64,000 bases of DNA from a virus (lineage: Duplodnaviria > Caudoviricetes): the IMG/VR virus record IMGVR_UViG_3300005713_000004, positions 12,734-76,733 of that record; one strand, given 5' to 3'. Of this stretch, positions 1,553 through 63,206 are shown piece by piece; within the stretch, counting starts at the first letter, position 1, and every line of letters begins with the position of its first letter. Both the position numbers and the translations under genes were made by a program. The notes under the pieces are model-generated. The model did not search any database and was not told the DNA's origin. It saw nothing but the letters and a program-made list of their open reading frames with translations.

Positions 1553-2072
1553 CGGAGGGAAGGGGGACGGGGCCGCTGCTGCTGCTCGGACCCGGGCCGG
1601 GGGTCGCTGTCGGAGCAGGGTCGCGAGTCGCTGGGCTCGTCGGTGGCTGCGCGGTCCGCGCGGGTGGGTCGGTGGGGTCTGCTCCCGCTCCGGGTCGAGC
1701 GCCACCGCTTCCCGGTGTCGCTGGTCCTGCTGCTGTCGTGGGGTTGGCACTGGTGGTGTCCTCCGTGATGTAGGGCAGGAGGACCGGGACCTCTCGGACC
1801 ACGGTCTCCGGGGGTGGTGGCGGGATCGTGACGACCAGCGTGGTTGCGGGCACGTCGGGCGGGAACTGCGGGACGGTGATCGGGGCGCCTTCGCCCCGGA
1901 GCAGGGCGCGGACGTCGTCGAAGGCGGAGAGCGGGCCCGCGAGGTGGGAGAGCCATCCTCCCCCGGCGAGGGCTACCGCTGCGGCGGTGAGGTAGCAGGG
2001 CCACCGGTACGCGTCGAGGTCGAGGCGCCTCCGGGGGACCTGCTCGATCTGCTGCGTGTCCACGCCCCCCAT
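1371..2072 (-). CDS. Membrane-anchored Pro/Thr-rich protein
   Basis: SD+ATG at 2072, TM segment, Pro-rich tail; 3' part overlaps next gene. Confidence 0.45.
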   Translation of the reverse strand: MGGVDTQQIEQVPRRRLDLDAYRWPCYLTAAAVALAGGGWLSHLAGPLSAFDDVRALLRGEGAPITVPQFPPDVPATTLVVTIPPPPPETVVREVPVLLPYITEDTTSANPTTAAGPATPGSGGARPGAGADPTDPPARTAQPPTSPATRDPAPTATPGPGPSSSSGPVPLPSDGPGPTGDPGAGGGGDGAPGAGVDPEGGSGDASGAAPPAPAGQPAGDEVGPPGAAPLARP

Positions 2073-2111
2073 CCTGCTCCGATCCACGGTACCCAGGTAT
2101 TGTATCGGCAG

Positions 2112-2130
2112 GCGTTCCACTTCGGAACGC
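2112..2130. promoter_or_regulatory. Inverted repeat in divergent intergenic region, putative operator of transfer module
   Basis: GCGTTCC-ACTTC-GGAACGC between divergent starts at 2072 and 2169. Confidence 0.45.
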
Positions 2131-2168
2131 GGGAGGAGTTCGGGGCATGGACCAGACGGGGAGGCCCG

Positions 2169-2384
2169 GTGGCGGAACCGGTAGTACCGCTGCTCGCGGA
2201 ACTGCGAGCGCTGCGGGAAGCGAGGGACCGGTGGCACAGCCGGGCGCCGGAGATCGTCCGGCTGCTGCGGGAACAGGGGGTGAGCCTGCCCGCGATCCGG
2301 GAGGCGACCGGGGTCGCGCAGGCGACCGCGCATCGGCTCGCGTCCTCCACGTCGCGCAACTCACGCTCGCCGGACCCCCGGTGA
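2169..2384 (+). CDS. Small HTH DNA-binding protein (putative transfer regulator)
   Basis: GGGGAGG SD + GTG; LREQGVSLPAIREATGVAQATAHRL HTH pattern. Confidence 0.65.
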   Translation: MAEPVVPLLAELRALREARDRWHSRAPEIVRLLREQGVSLPAIREATGVAQATAHRLASSTSRNSRSPDPR

Positions 2385-2494
2385 ACGTGTGCGACGAGCG
2401 GCCGTGGCAGGCGGCGGAGGCGGACGCGGAGCAGTGCCGCGCCTGCCAGACGAAGCAGTGGGTTCGGGCCGGGCGACAGGGAGAGACCCGATGA
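2381..2494 (+). CDS. Hypothetical 37-aa protein
   Basis: GTGA and ATGA coupling at both ends. Confidence 0.4.
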   Translation: MNVCDERPWQAAEADAEQCRACQTKQWVRAGRQGETR

Positions 2495-2685
2495 TCGCGG
2501 CGGCTGCGCTCGCCGTGATCCTGCTGGGCGTCCTGCTGTTCCGGGGCGACGCCGGGCGCGTCGGGATCCTCGTCGCGTTCGCCTGCGGCTCCGTGCTGTC
2601 CGGCGCGGCGATGCTGTGGGGTCTCGGATACGACCTGCTCGGCGTGGTCGTACAGGTGGCGTCGAGCGTGGCAGGGATCGGCTGA
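2491..2685 (+). CDS. Small membrane protein (Spd-like spread protein)
   Basis: Mostly hydrophobic; coupled to traA-like gene. Confidence 0.6.
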   Translation: MIAAAALAVILLGVLLFRGDAGRVGILVAFACGSVLSGAAMLWGLGYDLLGVVVQVASSVAGIG

Positions 2686-4298
2686 TGGCCACGTCCTCGA
2701 CGAGTCGCCGCGCGGACGCGACCCCGGCGGCTCCGCCCACCCCCCCGGCTTCGCGTCCGGCGCAGGGTCGGCCGCAGCGGACCGACGCCCCCGGCGCCGA
2801 CGAGGGCGTGGACACGAAGCGGCCCGGCCTGCCGGTGTGGGTCCTCGCGGTGCCCGCCGTGCTGGCCGTGGCGATGTGGATCGGGTGGGCGTTCGGGTGG
2901 GGGTGGGGTGTCGCGTTCGCGGTGGCCGCGCTGCTCGCCCTGCTCGTGTGGCGGCTGCTGGTCGCCCGGAAGGCCCGCGACGCGAAGAGCACGAAGGACG
3001 GGAAGGGCAGCCGGTCGGCCGCCCGGAGGGAGCGCAGGTGGAACAGGCGGACGACGGACGGGTCTACCCGTTCGGGACAGCCGGGGTCGGCTCGTGGTCT
3101 TCGGGGGCTGGCACAGCGGCTGCGTGCGAGGGCTGCGGGGAACCCGTTCCGTGGCGGTACCTCCGGTGGGGGCCGGTCGAGCGGGACGGGCGGGTCGTCG
3201 TCGAGCGGCTCGAACCGGCGTGGCACCCGGCGTGCGGGCGGCGGGCCGCGTGGCAAGGGCTCCGGGCTGATGTCGCGACGGCGCGGGATGCGGTCGTCCT
3301 CGTCGGGGAAGGGCTCGCCCGGCTCGTCCCGCCGATCGTCGGGGCCGTCGGGCCCGTCCTCGAAGCGGGGGTCCCGATCGTCGTCGAGCGGTTCGGGGTG
3401 GTGGTCGCGACTGCGCGGGAAGTCGGGCGCGTCCACCTCGTCCAGGCGCGGCGGGGGCTCCGGTGGGTCCGGGTCGACCGGGTCGGGCGGGCGGCCGGGC
3501 GGTGGGTCGGGGGGCTCGTCGTCCGGGTGGACGCGGCGCGGCAGGAGTGGGCGCGCGGGGTGGGCTACACCCGGGCGTGGCGGCGGGCACTCGACGGGGA
3601 CGACGAGGTGGGTCCCGTGGTGGCGGCGCCGGGGTGGCGCGGGTGGGACGTCCTCCCCGGGGGGGAGCGGTTCCGGCCGCTCGCGCCGGGGGAGTTCGAG
3701 CGGTGGGGGTTCCGGTGGGACGGGCGGCACGCCTCCGTCATCCGGCGGGACCCGGCCGCAGGGGAAGCGGGCCCGGCTTCGGGGGCGGGGGTCCTCGACG
3801 CCTTCCGGCGGTTCGACGGGATCGGGCCCAGCGGGCACGGGGACGTGGACACGCCGTCGCAGCAGCGGCGGCGCCGACAGGGCCGCAGGCCCGGACAGGA
3901 GTAGCGACATGCCGAAGAGCAGCAGCGCGCCGCGTGGGCGGCGGGGGACCGGGGCCGGGCCGTGGGGCCCGATGGTGGACGCGGCGGCGAACGTCGCCCG
4001 CGCGTTCTCCGACCCGGTGGCCATGGAGGGCGTGAACGCGCTCGACACGGCCGGGGACGCGTGGGAGCAGATGGGCCGGTCCGTCAAGGTTGTGGGCGCC
4101 ACGATCGCCGACGAGATCGATTGGGACCCGCGCGTGGCCCGGTTCTTCGAGGTGATGGGGGACGTCCTCATCCGGGCTGCGAAGCCCGCCCGCGACGGTG
4201 CCGCCGCTGTCCGGCGCGCGGAGCACGAGCGGATCAACAACGTGGAGGAGGGCGGCTCGCGCCGTCGCCGGTGGGATATCAGCGCCCACGACAACTAG
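2685..4298 (+). CDS. TraA-like transfer protein: 2 TM, long Gly/Ser/Arg linker, helical C-terminus
   Basis: Position directly before traB; architecture recalls actinomycete plasmid/AICE transfer proteins. Confidence 0.55.
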   Translation: MATSSTSRRADATPAAPPTPPASRPAQGRPQRTDAPGADEGVDTKRPGLPVWVLAVPAVLAVAMWIGWAFGWGWGVAFAVAALLALLVWRLLVARKARDAKSTKDGKGSRSAARRERRWNRRTTDGSTRSGQPGSARGLRGLAQRLRARAAGNPFRGGTSGGGRSSGTGGSSSSGSNRRGTRRAGGGPRGKGSGLMSRRRGMRSSSSGKGSPGSSRRSSGPSGPSSKRGSRSSSSGSGWWSRLRGKSGASTSSRRGGGSGGSGSTGSGGRPGGGSGGSSSGWTRRGRSGRAGWATPGRGGGHSTGTTRWVPWWRRRGGAGGTSSPGGSGSGRSRRGSSSGGGSGGTGGTPPSSGGTRPQGKRARLRGRGSSTPSGGSTGSGPAGTGTWTRRRSSGGADRAAGPDRSSDMPKSSSAPRGRRGTGAGPWGPMVDAAANVARAFSDPVAMEGVNALDTAGDAWEQMGRSVKVVGATIADEIDWDPRVARFFEVMGDVLIRAAKPARDGAAAVRRAEHERINNVEEGGSRRRRWDISAHDN

Positions 4299-4343
4299 GC
4301 CGCAGGGCCTAGGCAGTACCAACCACCACCACAGGAGGACCAC

Positions 4344-6644
4344 GTGTCGGAGACGCCTACCCGGATCACGATCCCGCCCGCGCTGGGCTACCCGGTGTTG
4401 GGCGTCCTCGTCGTGTTCATCGCCGGGTGGCTCTACACGTTCGCCGGGGCGGAGCACTTCGCGCCGTGGTGGCTCCTGCTCGCCGTGCCGGTGCTGGGCT
4501 TCCTCGGCGCCGCGCTCGCCCGGACCTTGTGGGCGGACGTCGCGTACGGGGTCGCCCAGCAGCGGGCGGCGGTGTGGTTCGCGTGGGTCGCGGCGGCCGG
4601 GGCGGGGGCGTGGCTCACGTGGGCCGGGCTCGTCACCCCGGGCGCCGCGCTCCCGCTGCTCGTGTTGGGCGCCCTGCCGTTGTGGGGGTGGTTCGCGATC
4701 CTGTGCCTGCGGGCGCCGAAGGCCCACGCCCGGCAGGTCGAGCGCCGGGAGGAAGGGCGGCAGATCGTCCAAGAACGGTCGTGGCGGACGATCCTCGACC
4801 GGTCGGGGTCGGAGGACGTGGTGATCACGGAGGTCCGAGAGCACCGGGCCGGGATGGTCCTCACGGTCGAGCCGGACCCGGACGCGGCGAAGTTCCCGAC
4901 GTACGACGAGTTCGCGGGCCGGGCGCCGTCGATGGCGACGCAGGCGGCGATGCACTACCGGCGGACCTCGAACACGCGGCTTCCGAAGAACTGCGTCCGG
5001 ACGGAGCCGGGCCGCGACGACGCAGAGTTCCTCGTCCACATCACGATGCGGGACGTGTTCGGGGCCTCGACGTGGTACCAGCCGGACGAGGTCCCGGGGG
5101 ACATCGCGGACCCGGTGGATCTGGGCGAGTACGAGGACGCGGCACGGCTGCTGCTCCCGCTGGACGCGAACACGAAGATCGTGGGGGCGACGGGGGCGGG
5201 GAAGTCCAACCTCGTGAACAACATCATCGGGCGGATCACCGGCACCATGAACGCGCTCGTGTGGGTCGCGGCCACGGACAAGTTGGTCCCGCTCGTGTGG
5301 CCGTGGCTGCGGGCGTGGCTGTCGGGGAAGACGAGCCGCCCGATCCTCGACTACGTCGCTGGGCAGGACATCGACTCCGTGTTGCGGCTGCTGCGGGCGA
5401 CGTACCGGCTCGTCTGCGAGCGCAACGCCCGACTTGAGGACGAGTCGAAGATCCGGCCGACGGCGGACCTGCCGGTGGTGTTCGTGATCCTCGAAGAGGT
5501 GTCCCACCTCACCGACTTCCCGGACACCATCCGGACCCACGACGGGATCGACTGCACGGCTTCGGACCTGCTCAAGATGATTGCGCAGGCGGACCGGTCG
5601 GCGGGGGTCCGGCTGTTCATGCTGTCGCAGTACGGGATCAACGCGGCTCTCGGCGACCGGGCGTCGGAGTTGATCCGCAACATCACGTGCAGGATCTGCC
5701 TTCGGACCATGGAATCCCACGACGGGTTCCGGACCCTGCCGGGTCTGCCGTCGACCGTGGACACGACCTCGCTCGCAAACTTCACGATGTACGTGCAGCC
5801 GAACACCGAAGAGGCGCGGGCGTTCCCGGCGAAGGCGCCGGAACTGGACGGCGCCGAGCAGGTCGAGCCGGTCGCGATCGGGAACACCCGGTGGCGCCCG
5901 GCCGGGGTCGAGCCGGAGGTGGCCGCGCTGCTCGGCCTCGACTACGAGCGGCGGTGGGCGTCCTCGCGCCTGCCGATCCTGGCGGCCCCGGTGGCGAGGC
6001 GCGGGTGGGAGTGGCCCGGCGAGCAGGTGGCGCCGGTCCCGGTCCCGGCGGCGCCGGTCGACGAGGTGGACGAGGGGTCGCCCGTGGCGGGCGGCCCGAA
6101 CGATGGGGGGGACAGCGTGGATACGACCATGAGTCCGGAGGACGAGGACGCGTTCCGGCGGCTGCTCGGCGGCGACGAGCCGGAGCAGCGGCAGGGACCG
6201 GCTGCGGCTGCGTCGGTCGCGGTCGACCGGGACGAGGACACGAGCGGGCGCGCGGCGCCGTTCGAGGTCCCCGACTTCGGCGCGGAGATGGCGGAGATGG
6301 AGGCGCTCGCGGCGGACATCGCGGCGAACCCGTTCGTCCCGGGTCGCGATCAGGACGCGACCCGGGAGGCTGGTCCGGGTCGCCCGGTCCCCGACCCGCT
6401 CGACCGGGTCGTCCGGTGGCTGGACTCCGTCCCGGTCGACGAGGACGCGTGGGTCCGGACGGAGGAACTCGTGTTCCGGATCGGGTGGGACCGGGACGCG
6501 GCGGCTCTCGGTCGGGCGCTCGCGAAGTTCCCGGGCGTCCGGTCGGACAACCTGCCCCGGCAGTTCGACCCGCAGCAGCGGAAGGGCTACCCGGTCCGGA
6601 TGCTTCGGGAGGCGGCGACCCGGTACCGGTTCGGGTCGCCGTAG
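4344..6644 (+). CDS. traB: TraB-type FtsK/SpoIIIE conjugative DNA translocase
   Basis: N-terminal TM helices, Walker A GATGAGKS, Walker B VFVILEE, C-terminal wHTH-like RTEELVFRIGW...LGRAL...RKGY; AGGAGG SD. Confidence 0.85.
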   Translation: MSETPTRITIPPALGYPVLGVLVVFIAGWLYTFAGAEHFAPWWLLLAVPVLGFLGAALARTLWADVAYGVAQQRAAVWFAWVAAAGAGAWLTWAGLVTPGAALPLLVLGALPLWGWFAILCLRAPKAHARQVERREEGRQIVQERSWRTILDRSGSEDVVITEVREHRAGMVLTVEPDPDAAKFPTYDEFAGRAPSMATQAAMHYRRTSNTRLPKNCVRTEPGRDDAEFLVHITMRDVFGASTWYQPDEVPGDIADPVDLGEYEDAARLLLPLDANTKIVGATGAGKSNLVNNIIGRITGTMNALVWVAATDKLVPLVWPWLRAWLSGKTSRPILDYVAGQDIDSVLRLLRATYRLVCERNARLEDESKIRPTADLPVVFVILEEVSHLTDFPDTIRTHDGIDCTASDLLKMIAQADRSAGVRLFMLSQYGINAALGDRASELIRNITCRICLRTMESHDGFRTLPGLPSTVDTTSLANFTMYVQPNTEEARAFPAKAPELDGAEQVEPVAIGNTRWRPAGVEPEVAALLGLDYERRWASSRLPILAAPVARRGWEWPGEQVAPVPVPAAPVDEVDEGSPVAGGPNDGGDSVDTTMSPEDEDAFRRLLGGDEPEQRQGPAAAASVAVDRDEDTSGRAAPFEVPDFGAEMAEMEALAADIAANPFVPGRDQDATREAGPGRPVPDPLDRVVRWLDSVPVDEDAWVRTEELVFRIGWDRDAAALGRALAKFPGVRSDNLPRQFDPQQRKGYPVRMLREAATRYRFGSP

Positions 6645-6761
6645 GCTGTCCGGGTCGTCCCGTCCTGCTACGCGACCCGCTACGTGGGTCGGGGCGACCC
6701 GGACAGCCACCGGCGCGCGGCGAGCCGGAGCGGGTCGCCGGACCGGGGTGGACGACCCGGG
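6644..6761. repeat. clt-like locus with GACCCG(G/C)N repeats
   Basis: 14-bp inverted repeat GGCTGTCCGGGTCG / CGACCCGGACAGCC (6644-6657, 6695-6708), each with GACCCGGA, plus further GACCCG copies. Confidence 0.55.
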
Positions 6762-6777
6762 AGAACCTGCTCCACGC

Positions 6778-6811
6778 GAGAGGCCCGGCCCCGACGGGGG
6801 CCGGGCCTCTC
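6778..6811. terminator. Bidirectional hairpin terminator
   Basis: GAGAGGCCCGGCCCC...GGGGCCGGGCCTCTC between convergent genes. Confidence 0.75.
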
Positions 6812-6823
6812 TGCTGTCCCGGG

Positions 6824-7165
6824 TTAGCGACCCGCGAGCCAATCGTTGAACCGGTCGCGAGCCTCTTCCTCGGACCCGGCGTAGTAGCCGCCGCCGGGGC
6901 CTTCCTCGAAGTAGCGTTCCGCCGCGCGCTCCGCCGCGATCTCCGCCCGGTGCTCGGCCTCCCATTCCTGCTGAATCGCCCAGCAGTGTCGGACGTGGGC
7001 AACGGTGGCGTGGCGGACGATCGCGTCCGGCCCGGTGACGCCGTAGCCCCGTTCGGTGTCGGAGCAGGATCCGCAGCGGACGCCGTCCGCTGTGCGCTCC
7101 GGGAGGCGGTAGTACTCGATCTCGTCGATCGGGCGGGCGGTGGCGGCCGTGGTGAGGGTCGACAT
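6824..7165 (-). CDS. Hypothetical protein (CxxC...HxxxC)
   Basis: GGAGG SD, own promoter. Confidence 0.7.
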   Translation of the reverse strand: MSTLTTAATARPIDEIEYYRLPERTADGVRCGSCSDTERGYGVTGPDAIVRHATVAHVRHCWAIQQEWEAEHRAEIAAERAAERYFEEGPGGGYYAGSEEEARDRFNDWLAGR

Positions 7166-7186
7166 CGTGTCCTCCGGTGAGGGTCT

Positions 7187-7257
7187 CTGTTGAGTTTTCA
7201 ACCGGACCCGGTGGGCCCGACACGAGAGACATTACACGGCGACCCACGACCACGCAA
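7187..7257 (-). promoter_or_regulatory. Cassette promoter with hairpin and boxA-like leader motif
   Basis: TTGCGT-17-TAATGT (7257-7229); TTGAAAACTCAACAG (7201-7187). Confidence 0.75.
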
Positions 7258-7418
7258 GCCCCCTGCGCGACCCGTTGCAGATCGAGACCCCACCGTGACC
7301 CGCAACGGTTGCGCAACCGTTGCGCCCAGCCGTGGACACGGCCAAAGCCCCCTCCCCACCTGCGAAAACACCGCGAGGGGGGAGAGGGCTCCGCGTGCAA
7401 CGGTTACAGCCGCAACGG

Positions 7419-7988
7419 TTACAGGACCAGCAATGCGACCCCCACCCACGACATCACCGACACCGGGAAGTACAGCCACGCGAGGCGGCTCGCTTCGACC
7501 TCGGACCCCGTCGAGAACACCCGCCCGATCCGCAGCCGCCCATCCCGAACCGCCGTGTAGTACCCCCGGTCGCGGCCGGGCCACGGGATCCCCGACATCG
7601 TCCGAGCGTCCCCCCACAGGTGGACGCAGCAGCCCACGAACACGCAGGCCCACCACCACACCGCCATGACCGGGCCGCCCAGCGGCGCCGGGACCAGCAG
7701 CGCCAGCAGCGCCACCGGGAGCCCGAACACCGCCGCTGCGGACCTCGTGTGCGTCCACCCCCTGTGCTCCACGAACAGGCACAGCAGCCACGACACGAGC
7801 CGCGTCGCCGGTCCGAGCGAGTGGGTCACCGTCGAGCCCGGGTGGTCGAGGTCCGGCAGGAGAGCGGAGTACCCGACGAGGATCCCGCCGAGCACGGCCG
7901 CCGGGAGCGGGACGCCCAGCCCGTGACCCGCCCCGGCGACCCACGACCCGGCGGCGAGCCCGGTCGTGAGGTGGCTCCGGGCCATCAT
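7419..7988 (-). CDS. Membrane metal-dependent hydrolase (YdjM/DUF457-like)
   Basis: MMARSH...ALLPDLDHPGS...HRGWTH...HLWGD motifs. Confidence 0.85.
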   Translation of the reverse strand: MMARSHLTTGLAAGSWVAGAGHGLGVPLPAAVLGGILVGYSALLPDLDHPGSTVTHSLGPATRLVSWLLCLFVEHRGWTHTRSAAAVFGLPVALLALLVPAPLGGPVMAVWWWACVFVGCCVHLWGDARTMSGIPWPGRDRGYYTAVRDGRLRIGRVFSTGSEVEASRLAWLYFPVSVMSWVGVALLVL

Positions 7989-8911
7989 GACGCGGACTCC
8001 GCGTCCTGCTCGACCGGAGCCGGGACGGGTCGCACAGCGGGTCGCGCGTCCCGGGCCTGCGCGAGCAGCCGGGTTGCCTTCGACCCGCCGCAACCCGCGT
8101 GCTCCCGGACCGCCTTCGCGGTCGGCGGGCGGCCGACCCGGTCCCACTCCGACCCGATCCACGCGACCGTCGCCGGGTCGTCCGGGTCGCCGACCCGGGT
8201 TGACCCGGCGGGTCGTGCCGGGTTGCGGGTCGCCGGGACCCGGGTCGGGGCCTTCCGGTCGGGACGGGTCGCCGGGTCGGCGACGGCCGGGACGGGTCGC
8301 GAGACGACCTGCTCGACCCGGGTCGTCGGGCGGGCGGCGAGCGCGGCGCCTACGGCGTCCCGGATCGCGTCCCGCTGCTCGACCCGGATCGCGTCCCGGA
8401 TGCGCTCCGGGTCGGCGGAGACCGGGATGCCGACGAGGTGGGTCACGGGCCACGTCGTGTCCACGTCCGCGCGCATCCGGGCGACGTAGTCGCGGACGCG
8501 GCCCAGCATGACGGCGACGAGTTCGAGGGTGACCGCGAACGAGATCGGGGCCCACACGGCGGCGGCGAGGCGGCCGACGCCCTCGCCGACGGACGGGGCG
8601 CCGAACGCGTCGGCGCTCGCGAGGTTCGCGGCGATGGTGCCGATGAACCCGACCCCGAACGCGAGCCACGGGACGAAGCCGATCGGCTGCTGCGCCCAGC
8701 GGCGGGAGTACATCACCACGAGCGCGGCGATCAACATCCCGTCGGTGGTGAGCGGGAGCCACGCGGCGCGGGACTCCGCCTCGCCGTAGGTCCGGAACAC
8801 CTCGTACGCGTGGTGGTAGGAAGCGACGGCGGCGGGCCCGCCGACGGACGCGAGGATCGCGGCGATACCGAGCAGCATCGCGGCGACCGCGAGAGCGGTT
8901 CGGGTGGTCAC
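7985..8911 (-). CDS. DUF2637/SpdA-like membrane protein with C-terminal HTH
   Basis: SYHH...WLPLTTDGMLIA...GTIAAN...AVWAPISF pattern; typical of actinomycete conjugative elements. Confidence 0.75.
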   Translation of the reverse strand: MTTRTALAVAAMLLGIAAILASVGGPAAVASYHHAYEVFRTYGEAESRAAWLPLTTDGMLIAALVVMYSRRWAQQPIGFVPWLAFGVGFIGTIAANLASADAFGAPSVGEGVGRLAAAVWAPISFAVTLELVAVMLGRVRDYVARMRADVDTTWPVTHLVGIPVSADPERIRDAIRVEQRDAIRDAVGAALAARPTTRVEQVVSRPVPAVADPATRPDRKAPTRVPATRNPARPAGSTRVGDPDDPATVAWIGSEWDRVGRPPTAKAVREHAGCGGSKATRLLAQARDARPAVRPVPAPVEQDAESAS

Positions 8912-9351
8912 GGGAGGATCTCCAGTCGGACGGAGCGGGTGATGTCGTGGCCGTTGTCGTCGAGCAGCGCGACCGGCTCCGCGCGAACCTCGATCAGGTC
9001 CGACGGCGGGCGGCGCGTGGTGGTGGCGGTGGCGCGCATGAGGGTCATGTGGTGGGCGACGGCGACCGCGTCGGCCGGGTCTTCGGCGATGTGGACCCCG
9101 ACGACCTGCTCGTCCGCGTAGTGGCCGACGAGCAAGATGTACGCCTGCGTGCGCGGCTGCTCCGGGTCGGTGGCGCCCAGCCGCTCCGCTTCGCGGGCGA
9201 CGGCTTCGCGGTAGGCGTGTCCGGTGTCGCGGACGATCAGGCAGGCGGCGCGGTGACGGAGCCCGGCGCCGGTGAGCCCGGCGCCGATCGGGCAGGTCAT
9301 CTCACAGTCGTCGCGGGCCTCGAAGTAGTTCGCGGGGGTGAGGGTGTCCAT
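8908..9351 (-). CDS. Hypothetical protein
   Basis: AGGAG SD; coupled to next gene. Confidence 0.65.
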   Translation of the reverse strand: MDTLTPANYFEARDDCEMTCPIGAGLTGAGLRHRAACLIVRDTGHAYREAVAREAERLGATDPEQPRTQAYILLVGHYADEQVVGVHIAEDPADAVAVAHHMTLMRATATTTRRPPSDLIEVRAEPVALLDDNGHDITRSVRLEILP

Positions 9352-9406
9352 CGGGGTTCTCCTGTAGTGGGGCCCCGGCCCCCGGGGTGGGGGCCGGGTC
9401 CGGCGG

Positions 9407-9535
9407 TCAGTTCTGCGCTCGCCACGCGGCGGCGTCGGCGCAGGTCTCGCAGTGCCCGTCGCACTGCGGGTCGCCGCAACCGGCGGGGGAGGTGTCGGGG
9501 CGGGGGATGTAGATCCGGTGGCCGCTGCTGCTCAT
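9407..9535 (-). CDS. Small Cys-rich protein (CGDPQCDGHCETC)
   Basis: Downstream of promoter, SD-like AAGGA. Confidence 0.5.
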   Translation of the reverse strand: MSSSGHRIYIPRPDTSPAGCGDPQCDGHCETCADAAAWRAQN

Positions 9536-9581
9536 CTGTCCGGTCCTTCCGTTGGGGCCGCTGTCCGGCCCGACACGACAG

Positions 9582-9645
9582 ACATTACACGCCCCCCGTG
9601 GGTCACGCAACCCCCTTGCGTGAACCCACGGCAGGCGTGTAACGT
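9582..9645. promoter_or_regulatory. Back-to-back divergent cassette promoters
   Basis: Minus TTGCGT-17-TAATGT (9610-9582); plus TTGCGT-18-TAACGT (9616-9645). Confidence 0.75.
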
Positions 9646-9652
9646 CTGCGGC

Positions 9653-9991
9653 ATGACGACACGGACAGCACAGCCCCCCGCCCCACCGAAGCCGGTCCAC
9701 CTCACCCCCGGCGAGACCCGGGGCACGTGGACGGCCGTTGACGGCCGGTTCACGATCACGACCTACCGTGCCGGGCGAGGCGCCACCGCCGACGAGCGGG
9801 AGCAACAGGCCGCCGGAGCGCTCGACATCGTGGACACGGCGCGGCGCAACATCCTCGGACACGTGGGTACCGACACCGCCCGCGTCTACGACCGCGAGGA
9901 CGCCGTGGGCGCCATCACCCGCGTCCTACGGATCGAGCACCGGGACGCGGTCCGCCTCGCCGAACTCCGCGTCGCCCGGCGGGTGATCTGA
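9653..9991 (+). CDS. Hypothetical leaderless protein
   Basis: ATG 7 nt after -10. Confidence 0.7.
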   Translation: MTTRTAQPPAPPKPVHLTPGETRGTWTAVDGRFTITTYRAGRGATADEREQQAAGALDIVDTARRNILGHVGTDTARVYDREDAVGAITRVLRIEHRDAVRLAELRVARRVI

Positions 9992-9993
9992 TC

Positions 9994-10221
9994 ATGTGCT
10001 CGAACACGAAGCGGCACTTCCGCGACGAGGGCCCTGCGCTCGCCGCGATGCACCGGATGATCCTCAACCCGCAGAACCGGCGCCACCACAACCCGTGCCG
10101 GGTCATCCCCTGCGACCGGCACTGCGGGGAGTACGTGCTCACCTCGTCCCCACAGCGGGCGACGAGCGGGCGAGGCAGGACGAACGGCGGGAAGGGCTCC
10201 CGCCGGAGCGGACGGAGGTAA
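9994..10221 (+). CDS. Small putative Zn-binding phage protein
   Basis: CRVIPCDRHCGEYVLTS resembles phage CxxCxxxHLTS family. Confidence 0.55.
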   Translation: MCSNTKRHFRDEGPALAAMHRMILNPQNRRHHNPCRVIPCDRHCGEYVLTSSPQRATSGRGRTNGGKGSRRSGRR

Positions 10222-10226
10222 CGACG

Positions 10227-10586
10227 ATGGGCCACACGATCGGGCAGGCCGGGACCCGCGAAGAGCAGCGGGTGTTCATGGTCGCCACGCTGGACGAGGA
10301 CGCGACAGTCCTCGTCTCCGGATACCACCGCAAGCAGGAGTGGCGCCCGACCCGGGTGGCCGCGACGTTCGAGCGGGACCGCCCGAACACCACCGGGCCG
10401 TGGAACTCGTGGACGATGATGTCCGCGCACGTGAGCGGGTTCAACCTCCGGAAGGACGGGTCCGCAGGCGCGGACCACCGCGAGCGGCTGTACAGCAACG
10501 ACCGGGGCGGCCCCGACGTGGCCGCCGCGCTCGCCGACATGGCCCGGCTCGTCGAGGCCCACGGCGTCGACCAGCCCGAAGCCTGA
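10227..10586 (+). CDS. Hypothetical protein
   Basis: GGAGG SD. Confidence 0.7.
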   Translation: MGHTIGQAGTREEQRVFMVATLDEDATVLVSGYHRKQEWRPTRVAATFERDRPNTTGPWNSWTMMSAHVSGFNLRKDGSAGADHRERLYSNDRGGPDVAAALADMARLVEAHGVDQPEA

Positions 10587-10597
10587 CCGGAACGACC

Positions 10598-10631
10598 AGC
10601 AGCCCCCGGACCACATGGTCCGGGGGCTGCT
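10598..10631. terminator. Bidirectional hairpin terminator
   Basis: AGCAGCCCCCGGACCA...TGGTCCGGGGGCTGCT. Confidence 0.75.
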
Positions 10632-10636
10632 TCGTG

Positions 10637-10747
10637 TCGCGGCGGTGGGACTCGAACCCACGACCTCCGGGGCCTCCCCCGGCGCGCTGCTCGTGATCCG
10701 CTGGTCGTACGCCCGGCGGGCGAGGCTTCCGGCTGCGCCACACCGCG
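10637..10747 (-). ncRNA. tRNA-Pro-like RNA lacking an anticodon loop, with 47-nt D-loop
   Basis: Acceptor CGCGGTG/CGCCGCG + A73, D stem GCGC/GCGC, T arm GTGGG-TTCGAGT-CCCAC, variable loop AGGTC; anticodon arm is CCGGGG-GAGG-CCCCGG. Confidence 0.7.
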
Positions 10748-10775
10748 AGCCCCCACAGTAGCCGTGGACACGGCC

Positions 10776-11633
10776 TCACGACCAGACGAGCCCCACGACG
10801 TTGACGTAGCCGCCTCCGGTCCCGAGGACGAGCGGGGCGGTCATCGTGATGGTGCAGCCGGTCGCGGTGAGCGTCCCCGACTTGAGGACCATCGTGATCG
10901 AGCCCAGCGTCCCGCCTCCGGGCTCGCGCAGGATCGCGATCGAGGTCGGGACGGCGCCTGCGCTGGTCCACGTGACCGCGACGTCGGTCGGGGTATTCAG
11001 CGCGAGCGCAGGCACCGCGACGCGGCCGTGGACGAGCCGGGGCCGGAGCGCTTCGAGCGCGGTCACGCGGGTGGTGAGCGCGGCGACCGCAGCGGCTGCG
11101 GCGTCGGCGGTGGTCTTCGCTCCGGCCGCTGTCGCGCCCGCTGCGGTCGCGGTCGACTGGGCGGCGGCTGCGTCCGTCTTCGCGGTGTTCGCCGTGGACT
11201 GGGCGGCGGAGGCTGCGGTACCGGCTGCGGTGGCGGTGGTCTGTGCTGCGGCGGCTGCGGTCGAGGCTGCGGCGGCTGCGGCGGTCGCCTCCGTGGCGCT
11301 CGTCTTCGCGCTGTCCCCGGTGGCCTTCGCGGTGTCGGCGGCCGTCTTCGCCGCAGCAGCGGCGGTCGAAGCGAGCGCGGCGGCTGCGCTCGCGGACTGG
11401 GCGGCGGTCGAGGCGGCTCCGGCTGCGGTGGTCGCGTCGGCGGCTGCGGTCCCGGCGGCGGTGGCCATGGTCCGGGCGTTGCTGGCCATGGTCCGGGCGC
11501 TGTCCCCGGTGGCCTGCGCGCTGTCGGCGGATGCCTGTGCCGCAGCAGCAGCGGCGGCGGCTTGAGCAGCGGCGTAGGACCGACGCTCAAGCTCGATCAG
11601 ACGTTCGGTGACCGGGCCGGTGATCTGGCGCAC
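10776..11633 (-). CDS. Ala-rich coiled-coil fibre-like protein with C-terminal beta domain
   Basis: GGGAGG SD + GTG; long A/T/S heptad-like run, then RVTALE and beta-rich C-terminus. Confidence 0.7.
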   Translation of the reverse strand: MRQITGPVTERLIELERRSYAAAQAAAAAAAAQASADSAQATGDSARTMASNARTMATAAGTAAADATTAAGAASTAAQSASAAAALASTAAAAAKTAADTAKATGDSAKTSATEATAAAAAASTAAAAAQTTATAAGTAASAAQSTANTAKTDAAAAQSTATAAGATAAGAKTTADAAAAAVAALTTRVTALEALRPRLVHGRVAVPALALNTPTDVAVTWTSAGAVPTSIAILREPGGGTLGSITMVLKSGTLTATGCTITMTAPLVLGTGGGYVNVVGLVWS

Positions 11634-11730
11634 GCTCGACCTCCCGTCGGCGCGGGCGGACACGAGGACAGGGTAGGGCGGGGCGCCGGGCGACGCACCT
11701 TCCCCACCGTGGATTACCTTGCCAAACCTT

Positions 11731-11822
11731 CCGTGGATTGTCAACCCGCCTGGTCCGATCGGGTGACAATCCACGGAATCCACGCAGGGGGCTTGCGCGT
11801 GTCCACGCCTTGCGGGTAATGT
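11731..11822. promoter_or_regulatory. Divergent promoter/operator region
   Basis: Minus TTGACA (11744-11739) within CCGTGGATTGTCA/TGACAATCCACGG inverted repeat; plus TTGCGC-18-TAATGT (11793-11822). Confidence 0.7.
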
Positions 11823-11862
11823 CTCTCATGTCAGGCAAGCCCCCCCCGCCACGGAGGACACG

Positions 11863-12555: not shown

Positions 12556-12651
12556 GCGGGTGGACACGGCCCCCCGGCTGCGGCCGGGGGGCCGTTCTGC
12601 GTCCTCGACCTGCCGCAGGTCGTGTCCACGGTCACGAGTCGGTCACGGGGC

Positions 12652-12680
12652 TTGCACTTCCCACGGTCGCCGGGTAATGT
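12652..12680 (+). promoter_or_regulatory. Cassette promoter
   Basis: TTGCAC-17-TAATGT. Confidence 0.7.
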
Positions 12681-12727
12681 CTCTCATGTCGGGGGGAACA
12701 GCCCCCCACCACCACCCGGAGGTCCCG

Positions 12728-19992: not shown

Positions 19993-20030
19993 GTTACGGC
20001 GTGTCCACGGGGTACCCCTGCCGGGAGGTG

Positions 20031-35479: not shown

Positions 35480-35522
35480 GGGGCACCTCCGGGGGTCGGG
35501 GTAAGTCTCGATCACGGCACCG

Positions 35523-43084: not shown

Positions 43085-43141
43085 GCGCCCTGCCCTTCGT
43101 AGTGGTCCGCCGTGGACACGATGTCACCTCCGGCGGAGGTT

Positions 43142-54025: not shown

Positions 54026-54063
54026 CGGTGGCTCCGATCAGGGGGTGGGGACGTGTCCACGCC

Positions 54064-55726: not shown

Positions 55727-56064
55727 GAGGTCCCCGCCTTCGAGTCCTTCGAGGGCGTGGACACGCTCCCGGTGCCCTTCGGCGCCGGGGGCTCGTCCGC
55801 CCCCTTCCCGGGGGTGGTCGTGGACACGCGCGACGAGGTCGCCTTCCGGCGGGTCCCCGGCGCCGCGTCCGCCGTCTCGTCCCCGGCGGGCGAACCCTCC
55901 CGCTGCGGGACCAGCGTCCGCCGGACGGTGACCGCGCCGAACAGCGACTCCCGGCCCTTCACGACCGGGTCGTCCGCGTAGTAGAGGTCACCGACCCCGA
56001 CGGACACGGGCACGCCCTGAACGTCCGCCGAGAACGGCTCCCGCGCGGAGACGATGTCGGCCAT
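55723..56064 (-). CDS. Hypothetical protein
   Basis: In head operon. Confidence 0.6.
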   Translation of the reverse strand: MADIVSAREPFSADVQGVPVSVGVGDLYYADDPVVKGRESLFGAVTVRRTLVPQREGSPAGDETADAAPGTRRKATSSRVSTTTPGKGADEPPAPKGTGSVSTPSKDSKAGTS

Positions 56065-56401: not shown

Positions 56402-56419
56402 GTGACGGTCAGGGCTCGA

Positions 56420-57973: not shown

Positions 57974-57974
57974 C

Positions 57975-58967
57975 TCAGTCCTTCGAGGGGAGGGAAGCGA
58001 GGACGGAGTCCAACGTGTCGCGGACGGCCGCTCGCTTCGATGCCCAGTCACGCGGACGCGTGATACCGGTGGGGGACGAGTGCTCACCGGCTGCATCGGC
58101 TCCGGTGGATCGCGGCTCCGTCGAGTGCGCTCCGGCCGGGCTCGCAGTGGTCTGCGGCTCTGTGCTGTCCGTGATCGTAGACGACGTGTCCACGCCCTCG
58201 CCAGCCACGGACGGGGGGACCACCTGCTCGCGCTCCGGGACGGGGCGTGGACACGCCCGGTCGGCGAGCGCGACGGCGCGGGCGAGGCTCGACCGGCCGC
58301 GCTCCGTGCGCAGGTCGAGACTGCCCAGATCGATCACGAACGGGGACTCCGACGAGCGGACCCCGACGGAGGTCTGCTCGTACGCGGGCCACGCAACCGG
58401 GCCCACCTCCGACACCTTGACCTCGTTCAGCGTCCGCAGCAGCGGGCCCCGGTCCCCGGCGCCGTACCACAGCAGTTCGAGCAACTCGTCATCCTTGACG
58501 CGCTTGCCCTCGACGTCGGTCCACGTGTCCTTCACGACCGCGAACCGGAAGCTCATCCCGGTGATCCCGCCGCCGTTGCCCTCCGGCCCGGCGATGGCCT
58601 GCCGGACCGGCTCGATCAACCAGTTGTCCGACAGCCGCCCGACCACGTGGAGCCCGTGGTCGTCCTCCTCCGTGATGTCCCACCGGCCCAGCGGGATCGA
58701 GCCGATCAGCGGGTGGCGCCCGTGGTCGTACTGCATGACCGGCGTCCGCTCGCGGAGCGACTTCCGGAACGCGCCCTTCGCGATCTGCTCGTCGAAGATC
58801 CCTTCCCACGACTCGATCCGGGTCGTCTGCCCGAACACCGCGCCGTACCCGTCGATCGTCCGACCGTCGGGGTCCGCCTCCCCGGTGTCGGCCCGCAGGG
58901 TGAACCCCACCTCGCGGATGAGGTCGGTACGCGCGATCTCGCGCGGTCGATCGAGCGTCCTAGACAC
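57975..58967 (-). CDS. HK97-type prohead protease
   Basis: GYGAVF...E.I.KGAF...YDH...GMSFRF...EV..V.WPAY. Confidence 0.92.
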   Translation of the reverse strand: MSRTLDRPREIARTDLIREVGFTLRADTGEADPDGRTIDGYGAVFGQTTRIESWEGIFDEQIAKGAFRKSLRERTPVMQYDHGRHPLIGSIPLGRWDITEEDDHGLHVVGRLSDNWLIEPVRQAIAGPEGNGGGITGMSFRFAVVKDTWTDVEGKRVKDDELLELLWYGAGDRGPLLRTLNEVKVSEVGPVAWPAYEQTSVGVRSSESPFVIDLGSLDLRTERGRSSLARAVALADRACPRPVPEREQVVPPSVAGEGVDTSSTITDSTEPQTTASPAGAHSTEPRSTGADAAGEHSSPTGITRPRDWASKRAAVRDTLDSVLASLPSKD

Positions 58968-60375: not shown

Positions 60376-60584
60376 AGGCCCGGCACCCTACGGCCCGCGC
60401 GAGGGTCCTCCGGCTCGACCGACTCCGGCGCCGGGTCCGTGTCCACGCCGAAGAACAGGACCGCCGCCGACGCAGCAGCGCCCAGGACCAGCGCCGGACC
60501 GACCAGCCCGAACCACATCCACACGCCCAGCGCGGCGACCAGCCCGCAGGCCCACAGTCCGAGCAGGACCAGCAGCGCCCTCAC
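60372..60584 (-). CDS. Small membrane protein between TerL and portal
   Basis: 2 TM; GTGA coupling. Confidence 0.7.
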   Translation of the reverse strand: MRALLVLLGLWACGLVAALGVWMWFGLVGPALVLGAAASAAVLFFGVDTDPAPESVEPEDPRAGRRVPGL

Positions 60585-62275
60585 GAGGTGAACACCCACT
60601 GCTCAACGACTTCCTCAACCACTAGCGCCCCTTCCTCGACGGCTCGTTTCCGGCCCCACGTGCCCAGGACCCCGGCGATGAACGCGTCGATGTACCAGCC
60701 CGCGCGCTTCTTCACGATCTTGACGTACCGGCGCTCGACCGCCCCGTCCTCGCCCTCCCGGGGCGGCTTGAGCCCCCCGAACGCGAGCGAGGCGTTCCCC
60801 GCGTGCTTGCGGACGTCCGGGTCCCCGTCGTGGGTGAACTCGCCCGGCCCCACCTTGTACGCGTCCTCGAAGTTGATCCACGCCTCATCCATCCGGCGTT
60901 CGGTGTTCGTCGGGAACTCGACGACGACCGGCTTCCCCTTCGGGTTCGCCCCCCACTCACCCGCCTTCCGGCTGAGCACGGTTTGCCAGCGGTACGGGTC
61001 GGCGATCATGTGCCAGACCTCGTATGCCTCCCACGCGTCGTCCATGGCCTGTTCCACGAGGTGTTCCGGGACGCGGCCGGGGAGACCGTGCTCCCGCTCG
61101 AAGTCGGTCCGGTAGTCCTGCGGAGCCCAGACGCCCAGCCGGAACCACCGGCCGTCCCGGATCCGGACCGCGATCAACGCCGTCCGGTCCAATACACGGC
61201 TTCCGTCGAAACCCAGAACGACGCGCTCGCCGGGGAGGAGTTGCGTGTCCACGTCGTCCGGGTTCGGCTTCCGCGCGAGCGCGGCCCACCGCGTCCCGTC
61301 GATCGCGTCCCGCTCGCCCACCGTGATCTCGTCGAGGTAGAACCGCCGCGACTCCGCCTCACCCGTCGCGCCGTCCCGGACCTGCGCGAGCTGGCTCTCC
61401 AGATCGACCCAGCCGCCCGCCTCCCGCAGGCTGTCCCCGTACTTCACGACGATCCGCTCCCGGACGAGGTCGTCGTTCGCGAACTCCTCCTTTGTGAGGT
61501 TCGCCAGCCCCGTGCCCCGATGGTCGAGGTACACGCCCGGCGCCTTCGCCTCCGCCGTGGTCTGCGCCGCGCTGTCCTCCGTCGGGTCCCACGCGTTCGT
61601 CACCTCCGACCACGAGCCGCCGATGCCCGCGAGGTTCCGCTTCATCGCCCGGATCATGGGGCGGCCCTTGTTCCGGTCCGTCATGAGGTGGGTCTCCGTG
61701 AACGACGCGTACGTGATCGGGTTGCCCAGCCGCGAGTCCGCCGACATCGTGACCGTCTCGATCCACCCGTCCCCACCCGGGAGCTTGATCGTCGTCAACC
61801 CCGGGTCGAGGCCCGGCGTGTCCGCGAGCGGGCCTTCGGTGACCATCCGGTAGGTGGGCCGGAACGTGTTGTCCGTCTGGTCCTCGGACGTCGCCGCTAT
61901 CTGGATCCACGGCGTGGACACGGGCTTCCCGACCGGCTCTCCGGCCGCGTTCCACCCGTCGAACTGGACCGGCCCGAACGCGTGCGCGCAGACCTTAGCC
62001 GCGTTGAACGGGTCCTTCCCCCACTTCTGCGGGCGCCGCAACTGCGTGCCGTAGTGGACGAGCCCATCCACCGGACGCGGTCGTCGTGGGTGAACGACCG
62101 CGTCCGGGTGGAGCCGGTAGACGTGGACGAGGTGGGACCACATCTCGTCCGTGAGCAAGTACGGCTCTCCCCGCTGCGACTGATCGGGGACGATGCAGTA
62201 CTCCTCGATCCACTCGCCCACGACGTAGCCCAGCGTCGGGAACTCGCCCCGCTCGCGCGGACCCCGCCACGGCAT
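60581..62275 (-). CDS. Terminase large subunit
   Basis: RRPQKWGKDP, IAATSEDQT, FTETH, LGFDGS, IDAFIA. Confidence 0.95.
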   Translation of the reverse strand: MPWRGPRERGEFPTLGYVVGEWIEEYCIVPDQSQRGEPYLLTDEMWSHLVHVYRLHPDAVVHPRRPRPVDGLVHYGTQLRRPQKWGKDPFNAAKVCAHAFGPVQFDGWNAAGEPVGKPVSTPWIQIAATSEDQTDNTFRPTYRMVTEGPLADTPGLDPGLTTIKLPGGDGWIETVTMSADSRLGNPITYASFTETHLMTDRNKGRPMIRAMKRNLAGIGGSWSEVTNAWDPTEDSAAQTTAEAKAPGVYLDHRGTGLANLTKEEFANDDLVRERIVVKYGDSLREAGGWVDLESQLAQVRDGATGEAESRRFYLDEITVGERDAIDGTRWAALARKPNPDDVDTQLLPGERVVLGFDGSRVLDRTALIAVRIRDGRWFRLGVWAPQDYRTDFEREHGLPGRVPEHLVEQAMDDAWEAYEVWHMIADPYRWQTVLSRKAGEWGANPKGKPVVVEFPTNTERRMDEAWINFEDAYKVGPGEFTHDGDPDVRKHAGNASLAFGGLKPPREGEDGAVERRYVKIVKKRAGWYIDAFIAGVLGTWGRKRAVEEGALVVEEVVEQWVFTS

Positions 62276-62278
62276 CGA

Positions 62279-62737
62279 CTACGCCGTGTCCACGCCGTCG
62301 ACCGCGCGGATCCGCCGCGACCGGGTCGTCCCCTTCGCCGCCGTGCCGCCCTGCTCCCGCGAGTTGCGCTGCTCCGCCACCTCGTCGCCCGGGATGTTCC
62401 ACATCAGCGTGCGGAGCGCCTTCGGGTTCAGACCCAGCCGATCGGCGAGTTGCCGGGCCTCCGACGCCGCGTCCCGGTCGAGGCTCTCCGCCTTGATCGA
62501 CCATCGGACGTACATCGCCACCTCGCGTTCGGAGCGCATCCGCTCCCACGCGACCGCCTGCGGGGTGGCCCACAGCGCGGCCCACAGCGCCGTCTCACGG
62601 AGCCCGGTCGCTTCGTCCTTCGCCTCCGACAGCGGCCACGCCGGAGCCTTCCCACGGCGACCGTGGGCCGGGAGGTCCACCGGGCCGATGCGGGCGTTGC
62701 GCCTGCGGGCGTTCGGGTTCGCAGCAGCAGGCATCAC
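62279..62737 (-). CDS. Terminase small subunit (putative)
   Basis: Directly before TerL; LW.TPQAVAW...LGLNP..LR.L.W. Confidence 0.75.
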   Translation of the reverse strand: MMPAAANPNARRRNARIGPVDLPAHGRRGKAPAWPLSEAKDEATGLRETALWAALWATPQAVAWERMRSEREVAMYVRWSIKAESLDRDAASEARQLADRLGLNPKALRTLMWNIPGDEVAEQRNSREQGGTAAKGTTRSRRIRAVDGVDTA

Positions 62738-62955
62738 GAACCCCCGTCGGCGAGTGGATCCGTGGCGACCTGCCGGACGAAGCGGAGGACATCACCAGTG
62801 AGGTCCGCCATCACGGCGCCCGTGCGCTCCGCGAGCGACTCGCCCGCGGCGTGCACCCGGGCCGTCCGGGTCGAGGCGCAGGTCTTCGCCCCGCCGCCGA
62901 CGGGGCACGTCACGGTGACCGTGATCTCCGCTACCTCCGGCAGGATCTGTGCCAC
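62734..62955 (-). CDS. Hypothetical protein
   Basis: Coupled in operon. Confidence 0.5.
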   Translation of the reverse strand: MAQILPEVAEITVTVTCPVGGGAKTCASTRTARVHAAGESLAERTGAVMADLTGDVLRFVRQVATDPLADGGS

Positions 62956-62957
62956 GG

Positions 62958-63206
62958 CTACCGCCCCCCTCGTCCGGCGATGCTCGCCCGGACCGCGTCG
63001 TCCTTCGCGGACACCAGCGACCGGAGCGCGACGACGAGGTCCGGCGTGTCCACGCCCACCGCGCCGAGCAGGTCCATGGCCGCGACCGCGAACACCTGCG
63101 CGACCGCCCGCTCCGGCCCGGTGAGCGCCGGGTTCACGTCCAGCCACCGGGCCACGCCCACGACCTCCGGCCGCCGGTCGGCGGCGGTCGCCTCGACGGG
63201 CCCCAT
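62958..63206 (-). CDS. Conserved small phage protein
   Basis: VALRSLVSAKDDAVRA motif. Confidence 0.7.
   Translation of the reverse strand: MGPVEATAADRRPEVVGVARWLDVNPALTGPERAVAQVFAVAAMDLLGAVGVDTPDLVVALRSLVSAKDDAVRASIAGRGGR

Follow-up and report, generated by a model that had tools for sequence, protein, structure and literature searches.

This study concerns a ten-nucleotide word, CGTGTCCACG (complement CGTGGACACG), repeated along a 76,733-bp virus record from a soil metagenome (IMGVR_UViG_3300005713_000004, hereafter G000 or the contig), which we conclude is a phage-group-specific genome-wide DNA tag. The window analysed is a 64-kb stretch, record bases 12734-76733, and positions are those of the window unless given as contig positions. 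The window holds 50 exact copies of the word, 27 on the plus and 23 on the minus strand, and the whole 76.7-kb contig holds 61 (29+/32-), that is ~800 per Mb or about one per 1.3 kb. Dinucleotide-preserving shuffles of the window lead to an expectation of 0.63 copies, with a maximum of 3. The word is by far the commonest 10-mer of the contig, the next unrelated one occurring 25 times. A first-pass annotation had counted about 50 copies by eye, in roughly equal orientations, mostly within coding sequences as Val-Asp-Thr or Val-Ser-Thr, with less than one expected by chance; these figures hold, and so do the coordinates it listed, save that the copy placed at 29249 starts one base earlier, at 29248.

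Within the contig, 46 of the 61 copies lie fully inside coding sequences, and their enrichment persists under codon-aware null models. When synonymous codons are shuffled with the proteins fixed, 4.1 +/- 2.0 copies are obtained (maximum 10), and shuffling of the codon order gives 0.86. Most coding copies (37 of 46) encode Val-Asp-Thr (20) or Val-Ser-Thr (17), in the sole reading frame in which third codon positions remain G or C; codon usage accounts for the frame of the copies, not for their abundance. Moreover, the Val-Asp-Thr tripeptide is over-represented 2.5-fold and Val-Ser-Thr 3.6-fold in the proteome, and the exact 10-mer encodes 20 of the 22 former and 17 of the 23 latter (37 of 45 together). 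The DNA word therefore shapes the proteins, and illustrates the strength with which a DNA-level signal can reshape phage protein sequences. The word is also sharp: its 30 one-mismatch variants sum to 18 copies, a background level, the arms CGTG and CACG are invariant, and the centre is TC or GA in 61 of the 65 occurrences of CGTGNNCACG. The excess is thus real and strong, it is no artefact of composition or codon usage, and selection acts at the DNA level.

Some of the copies classed as intergenic supply a GTG start codon (GTG-TCC-ACG), so that there is little true intergenic excess. Such copies, which read fMet-Ser-Thr, are found at contig positions 1207, 10819 and 11127, and in the related sequences G313 (3124, 33136 and 50394) and G304 (14796), often 1-2 bases past the stop codon of the gene before. 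The flanks of the copies show only a weak GG...CC preference, possibly due to codon phase; no -10-like element was seen there, and the copies are therefore not promoters. A literature search for the 10-mer returned primers only.

The copies are spaced more evenly along G000 than random placement would give, with a coefficient of variation of 0.67 against 0.97 (P=0.0002) and a largest gap of 3.5 kb against an expected 5.8 kb (P=0.002). Spacing is also even in G313 (P=0.004). This regularity appears only when both orientations are pooled, and for neither alone. Orientation relative to the gene strand is random (24 TC to 22 GA among the coding copies of G000), and the orientation labels are randomly ordered along the genome (29+/32- in G000 and 14+/15- in G313; runs test not significant).

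In relatives at ~74% nucleotide identity most copies are not conserved in position. Where a copy persists, counting each position once, four positions have flipped between TC and GA and six have been kept, while an exact flip would be expected by chance in ~0.07% of cases. Perfectly palindromic centres are missing from most tagged genomes and present in G304 (TA three times, GC once), L436 (GC twice) and G309 (GC seven times). In G309 (IMGVR_UViG_3300027821_000015) the perfect palindrome CGTGGCCACG stands seven times beside 13 TC/GA copies, and G304 has CGTGTACACG three times; these forms may reflect a relaxed or shifted centre preference. Restriction avoidance was ruled out as the cause of the missing GC and TA centres, TGGCCA being at expectation in G000. 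In our reading, the site consists of two inverted CGTGK half-sites around a centre that is preferentially mixed, so that either orientation is read equally well, and selection favours the presence and density of copies, not their precise positions.

Copies also recur as pairs spaced 60-64 bp, or roughly six turns of the helix, in the window (43111/43175, 55756/55819 and 58185/58246) and in G304, G313, G308, G310, G312 and L348. The excess of pairs is suggestive only: spacings of 55-85 bp were built into the search pattern, and among the pairs some are homologous or fall within a 21-amino-acid repeat.

Occurrence of the word among phages and hosts

Tagged relatives were found by pattern scans of a viral collection and by walks from protein homologues. 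The word is the top 10-mer (among the top ones on short fragments) in at least 13 other phage sequences, and all tagged sequences are metagenomic. They include G304 (15 copies in 22 kb), G305, G313 (29 in 62 kb, 90% complete), G308 and G309 (13 in 36 kb), as well as L135 (17 in 21.7 kb), L136, L348, L430, L431, L432, L435 and L436. Together, the 14 tagged sequences contain 216 copies in 308 kb, with orientations of 115:101. Coding copies again exceed the synonymous-shuffle null, with 22 against 2.3 in G313, 13 against 0.8 in G304 and 10 against 1.25 in G309. A scan of the viral collection with a second spacing window re-found the same contigs. L239, L261 and L266 proved not to be genome-wide cases, and G306 and G307 were set aside as irrelevant, containing 12-bp tandem repeats at 55% GC.

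Two relatives locate the association. The complete 73.8-kb genome G704 (IMGVR_UViG_3300035684_000002), with a 77%-identical capsid, shares with G000 only a virion module of ~28 kb (41-80% protein identity) and has no copy, whereas G313 (IMGVR_UViG_3300014497_000010) shares only ~20 early, replication and recombination genes (31-55%) and has 29. The tag therefore follows the early module or a common host. Indeed, every contig with an SprT-like homologue of at least 45% identity, or with an accessible main-branch homologue of the 125-amino-acid protein described below, is tagged, at 0.5-1.6 copies per kb, while some 80 other capsid relatives (1.1 Mb) have the word at background. The tag is thus linked to a shared early-gene module and is then imposed on the whole genome. 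Comparison of G000 with G704 and G313 also reveals clean modular mosaicism.

The positions of G704 orthologous to copies in the structural genes of G000 are no closer to the word than background. The copies were therefore built de novo, by several substitutions each, and a model in which they arose from pre-existing near-sites is rejected. The case is unusually clean in that an exact word is imposed on structural genes whose orthologues in an untagged relative are without it. No alternative tag word was found in the motif-free relative L132/G704, and portal relatives at 43-57% identity had neither the motif nor an analogous word. The proposal of a genome-wide tag, made in the first-pass annotation, is thus backed by selection at the DNA level, even spacing and sharing among related phages, and the word makes it easy to recognise members of this phage group in metagenomes.

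That annotation had also considered a host motif of the HIP1 type, which was not supported by the genomes sampled. Among 301 Streptomyces genomes the word occurs 13-136 times each, or 3-17 per Mb, and among 401 genomes across the same phylum it never exceeds ~21 per Mb; the phage has ~800. These 702 actinobacterial genomes include unpublished ones, G133 among the Streptomyces and G430, G314, G484, G695, G534, G359, G547, G331, G640, G458, G392, G576, G622, G647 and G398 among the phylum set, and the negative rests in part on them. Within the genomes sampled, the word is thus no host trait. One outlier, the Streptomyces genome G285 (124 copies), was considered as the carrier of a resident element and rejected, its copies being dispersed. 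A metagenome-wide scan was dominated by tandem repeats; among the matches listed, L348 was the only tagged phage and no chromosomal contig had dispersed copies. A chromosomal trait of an unsampled host, or a host repair bias of the kind proposed for HIP1 and mirrored by the phages, is accordingly very improbable: although all tagged sequences are metagenomic and only a sample of actinobacterial species was scanned, the genome and metagenome scans speak against it, and a repair bias would not fix a copy at one promoter position in eight lineages.

G000 has a GC content of 72.6%, and gene calling by codon statistics yielded 140-143 genes covering 87% of the contig. It encodes a terminase, a portal, an HK97-type capsid, a tape measure and an Amidase_2/PG_binding_1 endolysin, together with a replication initiator, a RecE-like exonuclease, two WhiB-like proteins and a TraB/FtsK-like translocase. 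Among the non-structural proteins (window 1-40859 and contig 1-12733) Pfam and PHROG surveys recognised no ParA/ParB, integrase or DNA methyltransferase, despite the presence of a TraB-type conjugation module and the replication initiator; nor did they show an annotated immunity repressor in G000, where many proteins are without annotation. Megablast against isolated-phage and plasmid collections gave no nucleotide match, and among sequencing runs the DNA was present only in the source soil metagenome, with no RNA runs listed alongside.

Palindromes of 6 bp are strongly avoided contig-wide: GCCGGC is observed 0 times against 124 expected, CTCGAG 1 against 91, CCGCGG 4 against 138, AGATCT 0 against 11, TTCGAA 0 against 12 and AGGCCT 0 against 5.7. 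This depletion is classic restriction-site avoidance. TGGCCA, at expectation in G000, is absent from G313 (8.7 expected). The WhiB-like genes, the GC content, a portal relative at 57% identity in a Streptomyces genome and the avoidance of GCCGGC, CTCGAG and CCGCGG point to a Streptomyces-like actinobacterial host. A further word of G000, GAGCAGGTCCGC (11 copies) or CGAGCAGGTC (23 copies), occurs contig-wide, e.g. at 15599, 23086, 27410 and 31597, and is matched by the tripeptide EQV (20 against 2.9 expected); it is rare or missing (0-2 copies) in G313, G304 and G309.

Operator copy and candidate readers

Only one position of the word is fixed in both place and orientation, in the promoter of a gene for an SprT-like zinc metalloprotease (11863-12555, +). 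There the word sits between a -35 element TTGCG and a -10 element TAATGT (or TATTGT/TAGTGT), 5-9 nt from the latter, in 8 of 8 lineages (G000, G313, L348, L430, L431, L432, L435 and L436), and it therefore behaves as an operator. In the window this operator-like copy is at 11798-11807 (+), with 9 nt before TAATGT; a second copy lies exactly 62 bp upstream in G313 and L348. The protease gene, which is putatively operator-controlled, was assigned by Pfam (SprT-like), with an HExxH...H motif and a C-terminal zinc ribbon. Its product is the best-conserved early protein (45-77% identity) of a rare family (34 members among 5.8 billion proteins) with invariant H95, E96, H99, H108 and Cys and a Cys/His zinc ribbon at the C-terminus. 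The AlphaFold2 model (predicted local distance difference test score, pLDDT, of 85) has weak structural matches to minimal zinc proteases, SPRTN and IrrE first (E about 0.02-0.03). More distant homologues (39% and 27%) occur in lower-GC phages without the word.

A 14-mer, GGGTAATGTCTCTC, comprising the -10 element and leader, occurs five times with GGGGCTTGC as the -35 ahead, at 11814, 12672, 16967 and 19474 (+) and at contig position 8279 (-). It is one promoter type reused before several early genes, and the 10-mer stands in the spacer only at the SprT-like promoter.

The other copies of the window fall in every kind of setting. Intergenic copies are at 2055-2064 (+, 35 bp upstream of a helix-turn-helix gene at 2100), 2807-2816 (-), 7331-7340 (-), 10763-10772 (-), 12621-12630 (+, upstream of the next promoter), 16171-16180 (+), 23382-23391 (+), 43111-43120 (-, first of a pair 64 bp apart) and 54052-54061 (+, flipped in L135, L136 and G304), and one lies near a divergent early junction at 35902-35911 (+). 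Copies encoding Val-Asp-Thr on the plus strand are at 8456-8465, 21922-21931, 24534-24543, 44873-44882, 48089-48098 (tail gene, kept in L135), 49342-49351 (tail gene), 50073-50082 (tape measure), 58185-58194 (prohead protease/scaffold, first of a 61-bp pair, kept in G304), 60438-60447 (kept in L135 and G305), 61244-61253 (terminase), 62285-62294 and 63045-63054; those on the minus strand are at 3844-3853, 5756-5765 (TraB-like gene), 9829-9838, 14296-14305 and 18742-18751. Val-Ser-Thr is encoded on the plus strand at 20000-20009, 23691-23700, 37072-37081, 38850-38859 and 39770-39779, and on the minus strand at 31819-31828, 32936-32945, 41223-41232 (endolysin), 43175-43184 (second of the 64-bp pair), 48008-48017 (tail gene, flipped in L135), 48796-48805 (tail gene), 51540-51549 (tape measure), 55756-55765 and 55819-55828 (first and second of a 63-bp pair, the second flipped in L136 and G304) and 61913-61922 (terminase, flipped in G305). 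Coding copies in another frame are at 20583-20592 (+), 21315-21324 (-), 26329-26338 (-), 29248-29257 (+), 45073-45082 (-) and 58246-58255 (-, prohead protease/scaffold, second of the 61-bp pair, kept in G304).

Because the tag is tied to a handful of rare, conserved early genes and has one copy fixed as an operator, the choice of reader narrows to a few small proteins. The best candidate would be a 125-amino-acid protein (18419-18796, +) predicted to consist of a MerR/Xis-type winged helix and a Gly/Arg tail. Its gene lies directly downstream of a WhiB-like gene (17734-18306, +; Pfam Whib and synteny) in the seven lineages whose DNA could be read; in an eighth contig (gene table only) it is one gene further away. 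One copy of the word, at 18292-18301 (+), falls in the 3' end of the WhiB-like gene, 118 bp upstream of the 125-amino-acid gene, and the Val-Asp-Thr copy at 18742-18751 lies within the latter. The family has 18 members in the database, with invariant blocks that include the putative recognition helix, and all accessible main-branch members are on tagged contigs. The contig of a divergent homologue, L437 (2.9 kb), has no copy where ~2 would be expected, a shortfall that carries no information. The model of the protein has a pLDDT of 80-95 over residues 1-90, and its fold matches the DNA-binding domains of Xis, RdfS, BldC, RacA and MerR-family proteins over whole domains, with Z of 4-5; since these scores are modest, the protein is only a candidate. 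An alternative candidate is a 136-amino-acid Cys/His-rich protein (21203-21613, -), well conserved in tagged lineages.

An XRE-type helix-turn-helix protein (35120-35551) was rejected as reader, its recognition helices differing between G000 and G313, as was an SNase-like endonuclease common to G313 and G309 and missing from G000. Five conserved early proteins were also compared by sequence with solved structures, and none had a match.

The shared early module also encodes the TraB/FtsK-like translocase (4344-6644, +). About 1.3 kb downstream, within a DUF2637-like gene region, there is a dense clt-like CGACCCG cluster (7944-8544), with 19 copies in 600 bp against about 1.1 on average; G313 has no such cluster. 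Plasmid TraB reads GACCCGGA repeats. The CGACCCG cluster resembles them and looks like a clt-type transfer locus; it is a likelier target of the TraB-like translocase than the 10-mer. The 10-mer is dispersed, unlike the 8-bp repeats of clt type that are clustered near traB, and it is CGACCCG that forms such a cluster here. Nor are the copies arranged like parS sites, being dispersed in a genome whose proteome surveys showed no ParA/ParB families. The partition or condensation role proposed in the first-pass annotation therefore gained no specific support, ParB not having been found; neither did its proposal of a site for transfer or packaging, given that the translocase has a cluster of its own. 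That annotation had not predicted the conserved copy in the protease promoter, the tie of the tag to the early genes or the flips of orientation.

Possible roles of the word

Our preferred reading, which we hold tentatively as a serious possibility, is that CGTGTCCACG is recognised by a double-stranded-DNA-binding protein with sequence specificity, encoded in the early module common to all tagged phages, and that the word acts as an operator at the protease gene and serves genome-wide occupancy and silencing elsewhere. Bound in the spacer of the SprT-like promoter, this protein should block RNA polymerase. The other ~60 copies are kept by selection, with gaps of at most 3.5 kb genome-wide and at the cost of amino-acid changes, so that the same protein could occupy the entire genome through dispersed copies. 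The most likely purpose would be to silence or roadblock transcription across the genome while the phage is quiescent and plasmid-like, in the manner of Cluster A stoperators, and the repressed SprT/IrrE-like protease might then be the release switch. If the protease link is true, phages of antibiotic-producing actinobacteria would have a new switch for lysis/latency or for genome silencing.

Several points weigh against this reading. About 75% of the copies are intragenic in either orientation, unlike stoperators, and promoters of the same class elsewhere in G000 are without the motif. Ordinary operators tolerate degeneracy, and the word does not. The fold matches of the 125-amino-acid protein are weak (Z<=5.2, Foldseek E>=3). 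The linkage to the early module is inseparable from linkage to a shared host, and G309 is tagged yet has no early-module gene on its 36-kb fragment. Finally, no integrase, ParB or annotated immunity repressor was found in the surveys, which leaves the quiescent state itself as an inference.

A bolder version, which we think unlikely, is that the small MerR/Xis-like protein, possibly with a WhiB-like partner, coats the genome via this 10-mer, which selection would write into coding sequences by imposing Val-Asp/Ser-Thr on many proteins, and that the word represses a DNA-associated SprT/IrrE-like protease which strips the coat when induced, making a new control circuit. The TC/GA flips would then reflect an orientation-neutral symmetric reader, or else a concerted flipping process.

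It is rather unlikely that a host protein reads the sites, with the phage copies recruiting or titrating host WhiA, a sigma factor or DnaA, perhaps together with the phage WhiB-like proteins, which all tagged lineages encode. Within the word are GACAC, the WhiA element; TGGACA, which resembles a -35 hexamer; and TGTCCAC, the core of the DnaA box of actinobacteria. These overlaps are short and are leads only. WhiA acts together with WhiB and binds GACAC in either orientation, as a monomer (PMC3781837, PMC10243135). The presence of GACAC in CGTGGACACG nevertheless says little, because a single Streptomyces chromosome has 15,116 GACAC sites and WhiA showed no preference for particular flanking bases (PMC3781837). 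A host reader might also explain why the tag is common to phages with little gene overlap, such as G309, and why Streptomyces chromosomes hold the 10-mer ~2.5 times more often than a reversed control. However, none of WhiA, sigma and DnaA accounts for the palindromic arms or for the exact outer C and G, the DnaA box is mismatched at both end positions, a sponge would need copy number and not even spacing, and G704 has similar virion genes with 0 copies.

We consider quite unlikely a self-tag for moving DNA, in which the word would be a loading or recognition site for the TraB/FtsK-like pump or for packaging or uptake machinery. Copies could have accumulated by selection or by a drive like that proposed for uptake sequences, and any part of the genome could then be picked up. 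Density, sharpness, even spacing, fixed frame and fast turnover all match uptake sequences, and a TraB-like gene belongs to the shared early module of G000, G313, L430 and probably L435. This reading would not lead one to expect a copy fixed as an operator in a promoter spacer, leaves aside the separate CGACCCG cluster near traB in G000, and fits poorly with translocase guides such as the FtsK-orienting polar sequences (KOPS) and SpoIIIE recognition sequences (SRS), which are strand-skewed while the word is not.

It is improbable that the word marks self DNA, either as a Chi-like signal that stops or protects from a nuclease or as the target of a protective DNA modification. Even spacing without long gaps would suit a signal that must be met within a few kb, and nucleases are encoded (a RecE-like exonuclease and HNH enzymes in G000, SNase-like ones in G313 and G309); the strong restriction-site avoidance in G000 shows that defence pressure is real. 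However, no nuclease is common to all lineages, no methyltransferase or other modification enzyme was found in the Pfam/PHROG surveys, and Chi-like signals are strand-specific and host-enriched, which the word is not.

Comparison with known systems

The DNA uptake sequence (DUS) of Neisseria, the uptake signal sequence (USS) of Haemophilus and HIP1 of cyanobacteria are exact words of 8-12 bp found about once per kb, and are traits of the cellular chromosome. The present word is like them in its exactness, its density of about one per kb, its in-frame tripeptides and its even spacing; unlike them, it is restricted to one group of phages, and every bacterial genome sampled has it at background level. 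The ram sites of RacA, the KorB operators of plasmid RK2 and the BldC repeats comprise 12-25 sites, usually in a limited region and with variation tolerated. They resemble the present case in combining a small winged-helix or helix-turn-helix protein, here predicted, with a palindromic word and dispersed sites in and off promoters, although no ParA/ParB partner was found here. Polar signals of the Chi/KOPS type differ from the word, which has no strand or orientation skew. As noted in the first-pass annotation, the word differs at two positions from the actinobacterial DnaA box TTGTCCACA, matching it as a string at 7 of 9 bases; both end positions differ, and the copies are evenly dispersed and not clustered at an origin. 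The GACAC of the WhiA site, contained in the complement, carries little weight given how common it is (PMC3781837).

The stoperators of Cluster A phages (L5, TipsytheTRex) and of the Streptomyces phages R4 and phiJoe also consist of one short word at similar density, with 20-35 copies per genome and a phage-encoded reader (PMC9283540, PMC10276819). Repressors of the L5 type occupy over 20 sites, in promoters and elsewhere along the genome (PMC9283540), and here too copies lie both at a promoter and far from promoters. Stoperators are, however, 13-bp asymmetric sites, bound by a monomer, placed in the short gaps between genes and active only in a single orientation with respect to transcription, whereas the present word is a mostly intragenic quasi-palindrome in random orientation (24:22). 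G000 thus shares with them the more than 20 repeats, and shows neither the correlation of orientation with transcription nor the promoter or intergenic location; no homologue of the L5 gp71-type repressor was recognised among its partly annotated proteins.

The nearest described system is the 17-bp dyad repeat TGTTCGGNNNCCGAACA of Cluster O mycobacteriophages, present in 34 copies in Corndog (PMC4351075, PMC6439249). That repeat, of which a ~70-kb genome has more than 30 copies, is of unknown function (PMC4351075). As in our phages, it has invariant inverted arms and an asymmetric centre found in both orientations unlinked to transcription, and some of its copies are intragenic (PMC4351075). 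It differs in sequence and in size, the present word having 10 bp with 4-bp arms and a 2-bp centre, and also in location (about 75% of copies are intragenic here, against about one third there), density (0.7-0.8 per kb against about 0.5) and distribution (even spacing against crowding at one end); the conserved operator copy at a protease gene promoter is a further difference, and the phages are unrelated. Genome-wide repeated words are known in a few actinophage groups, and their function is settled only for stoperators.

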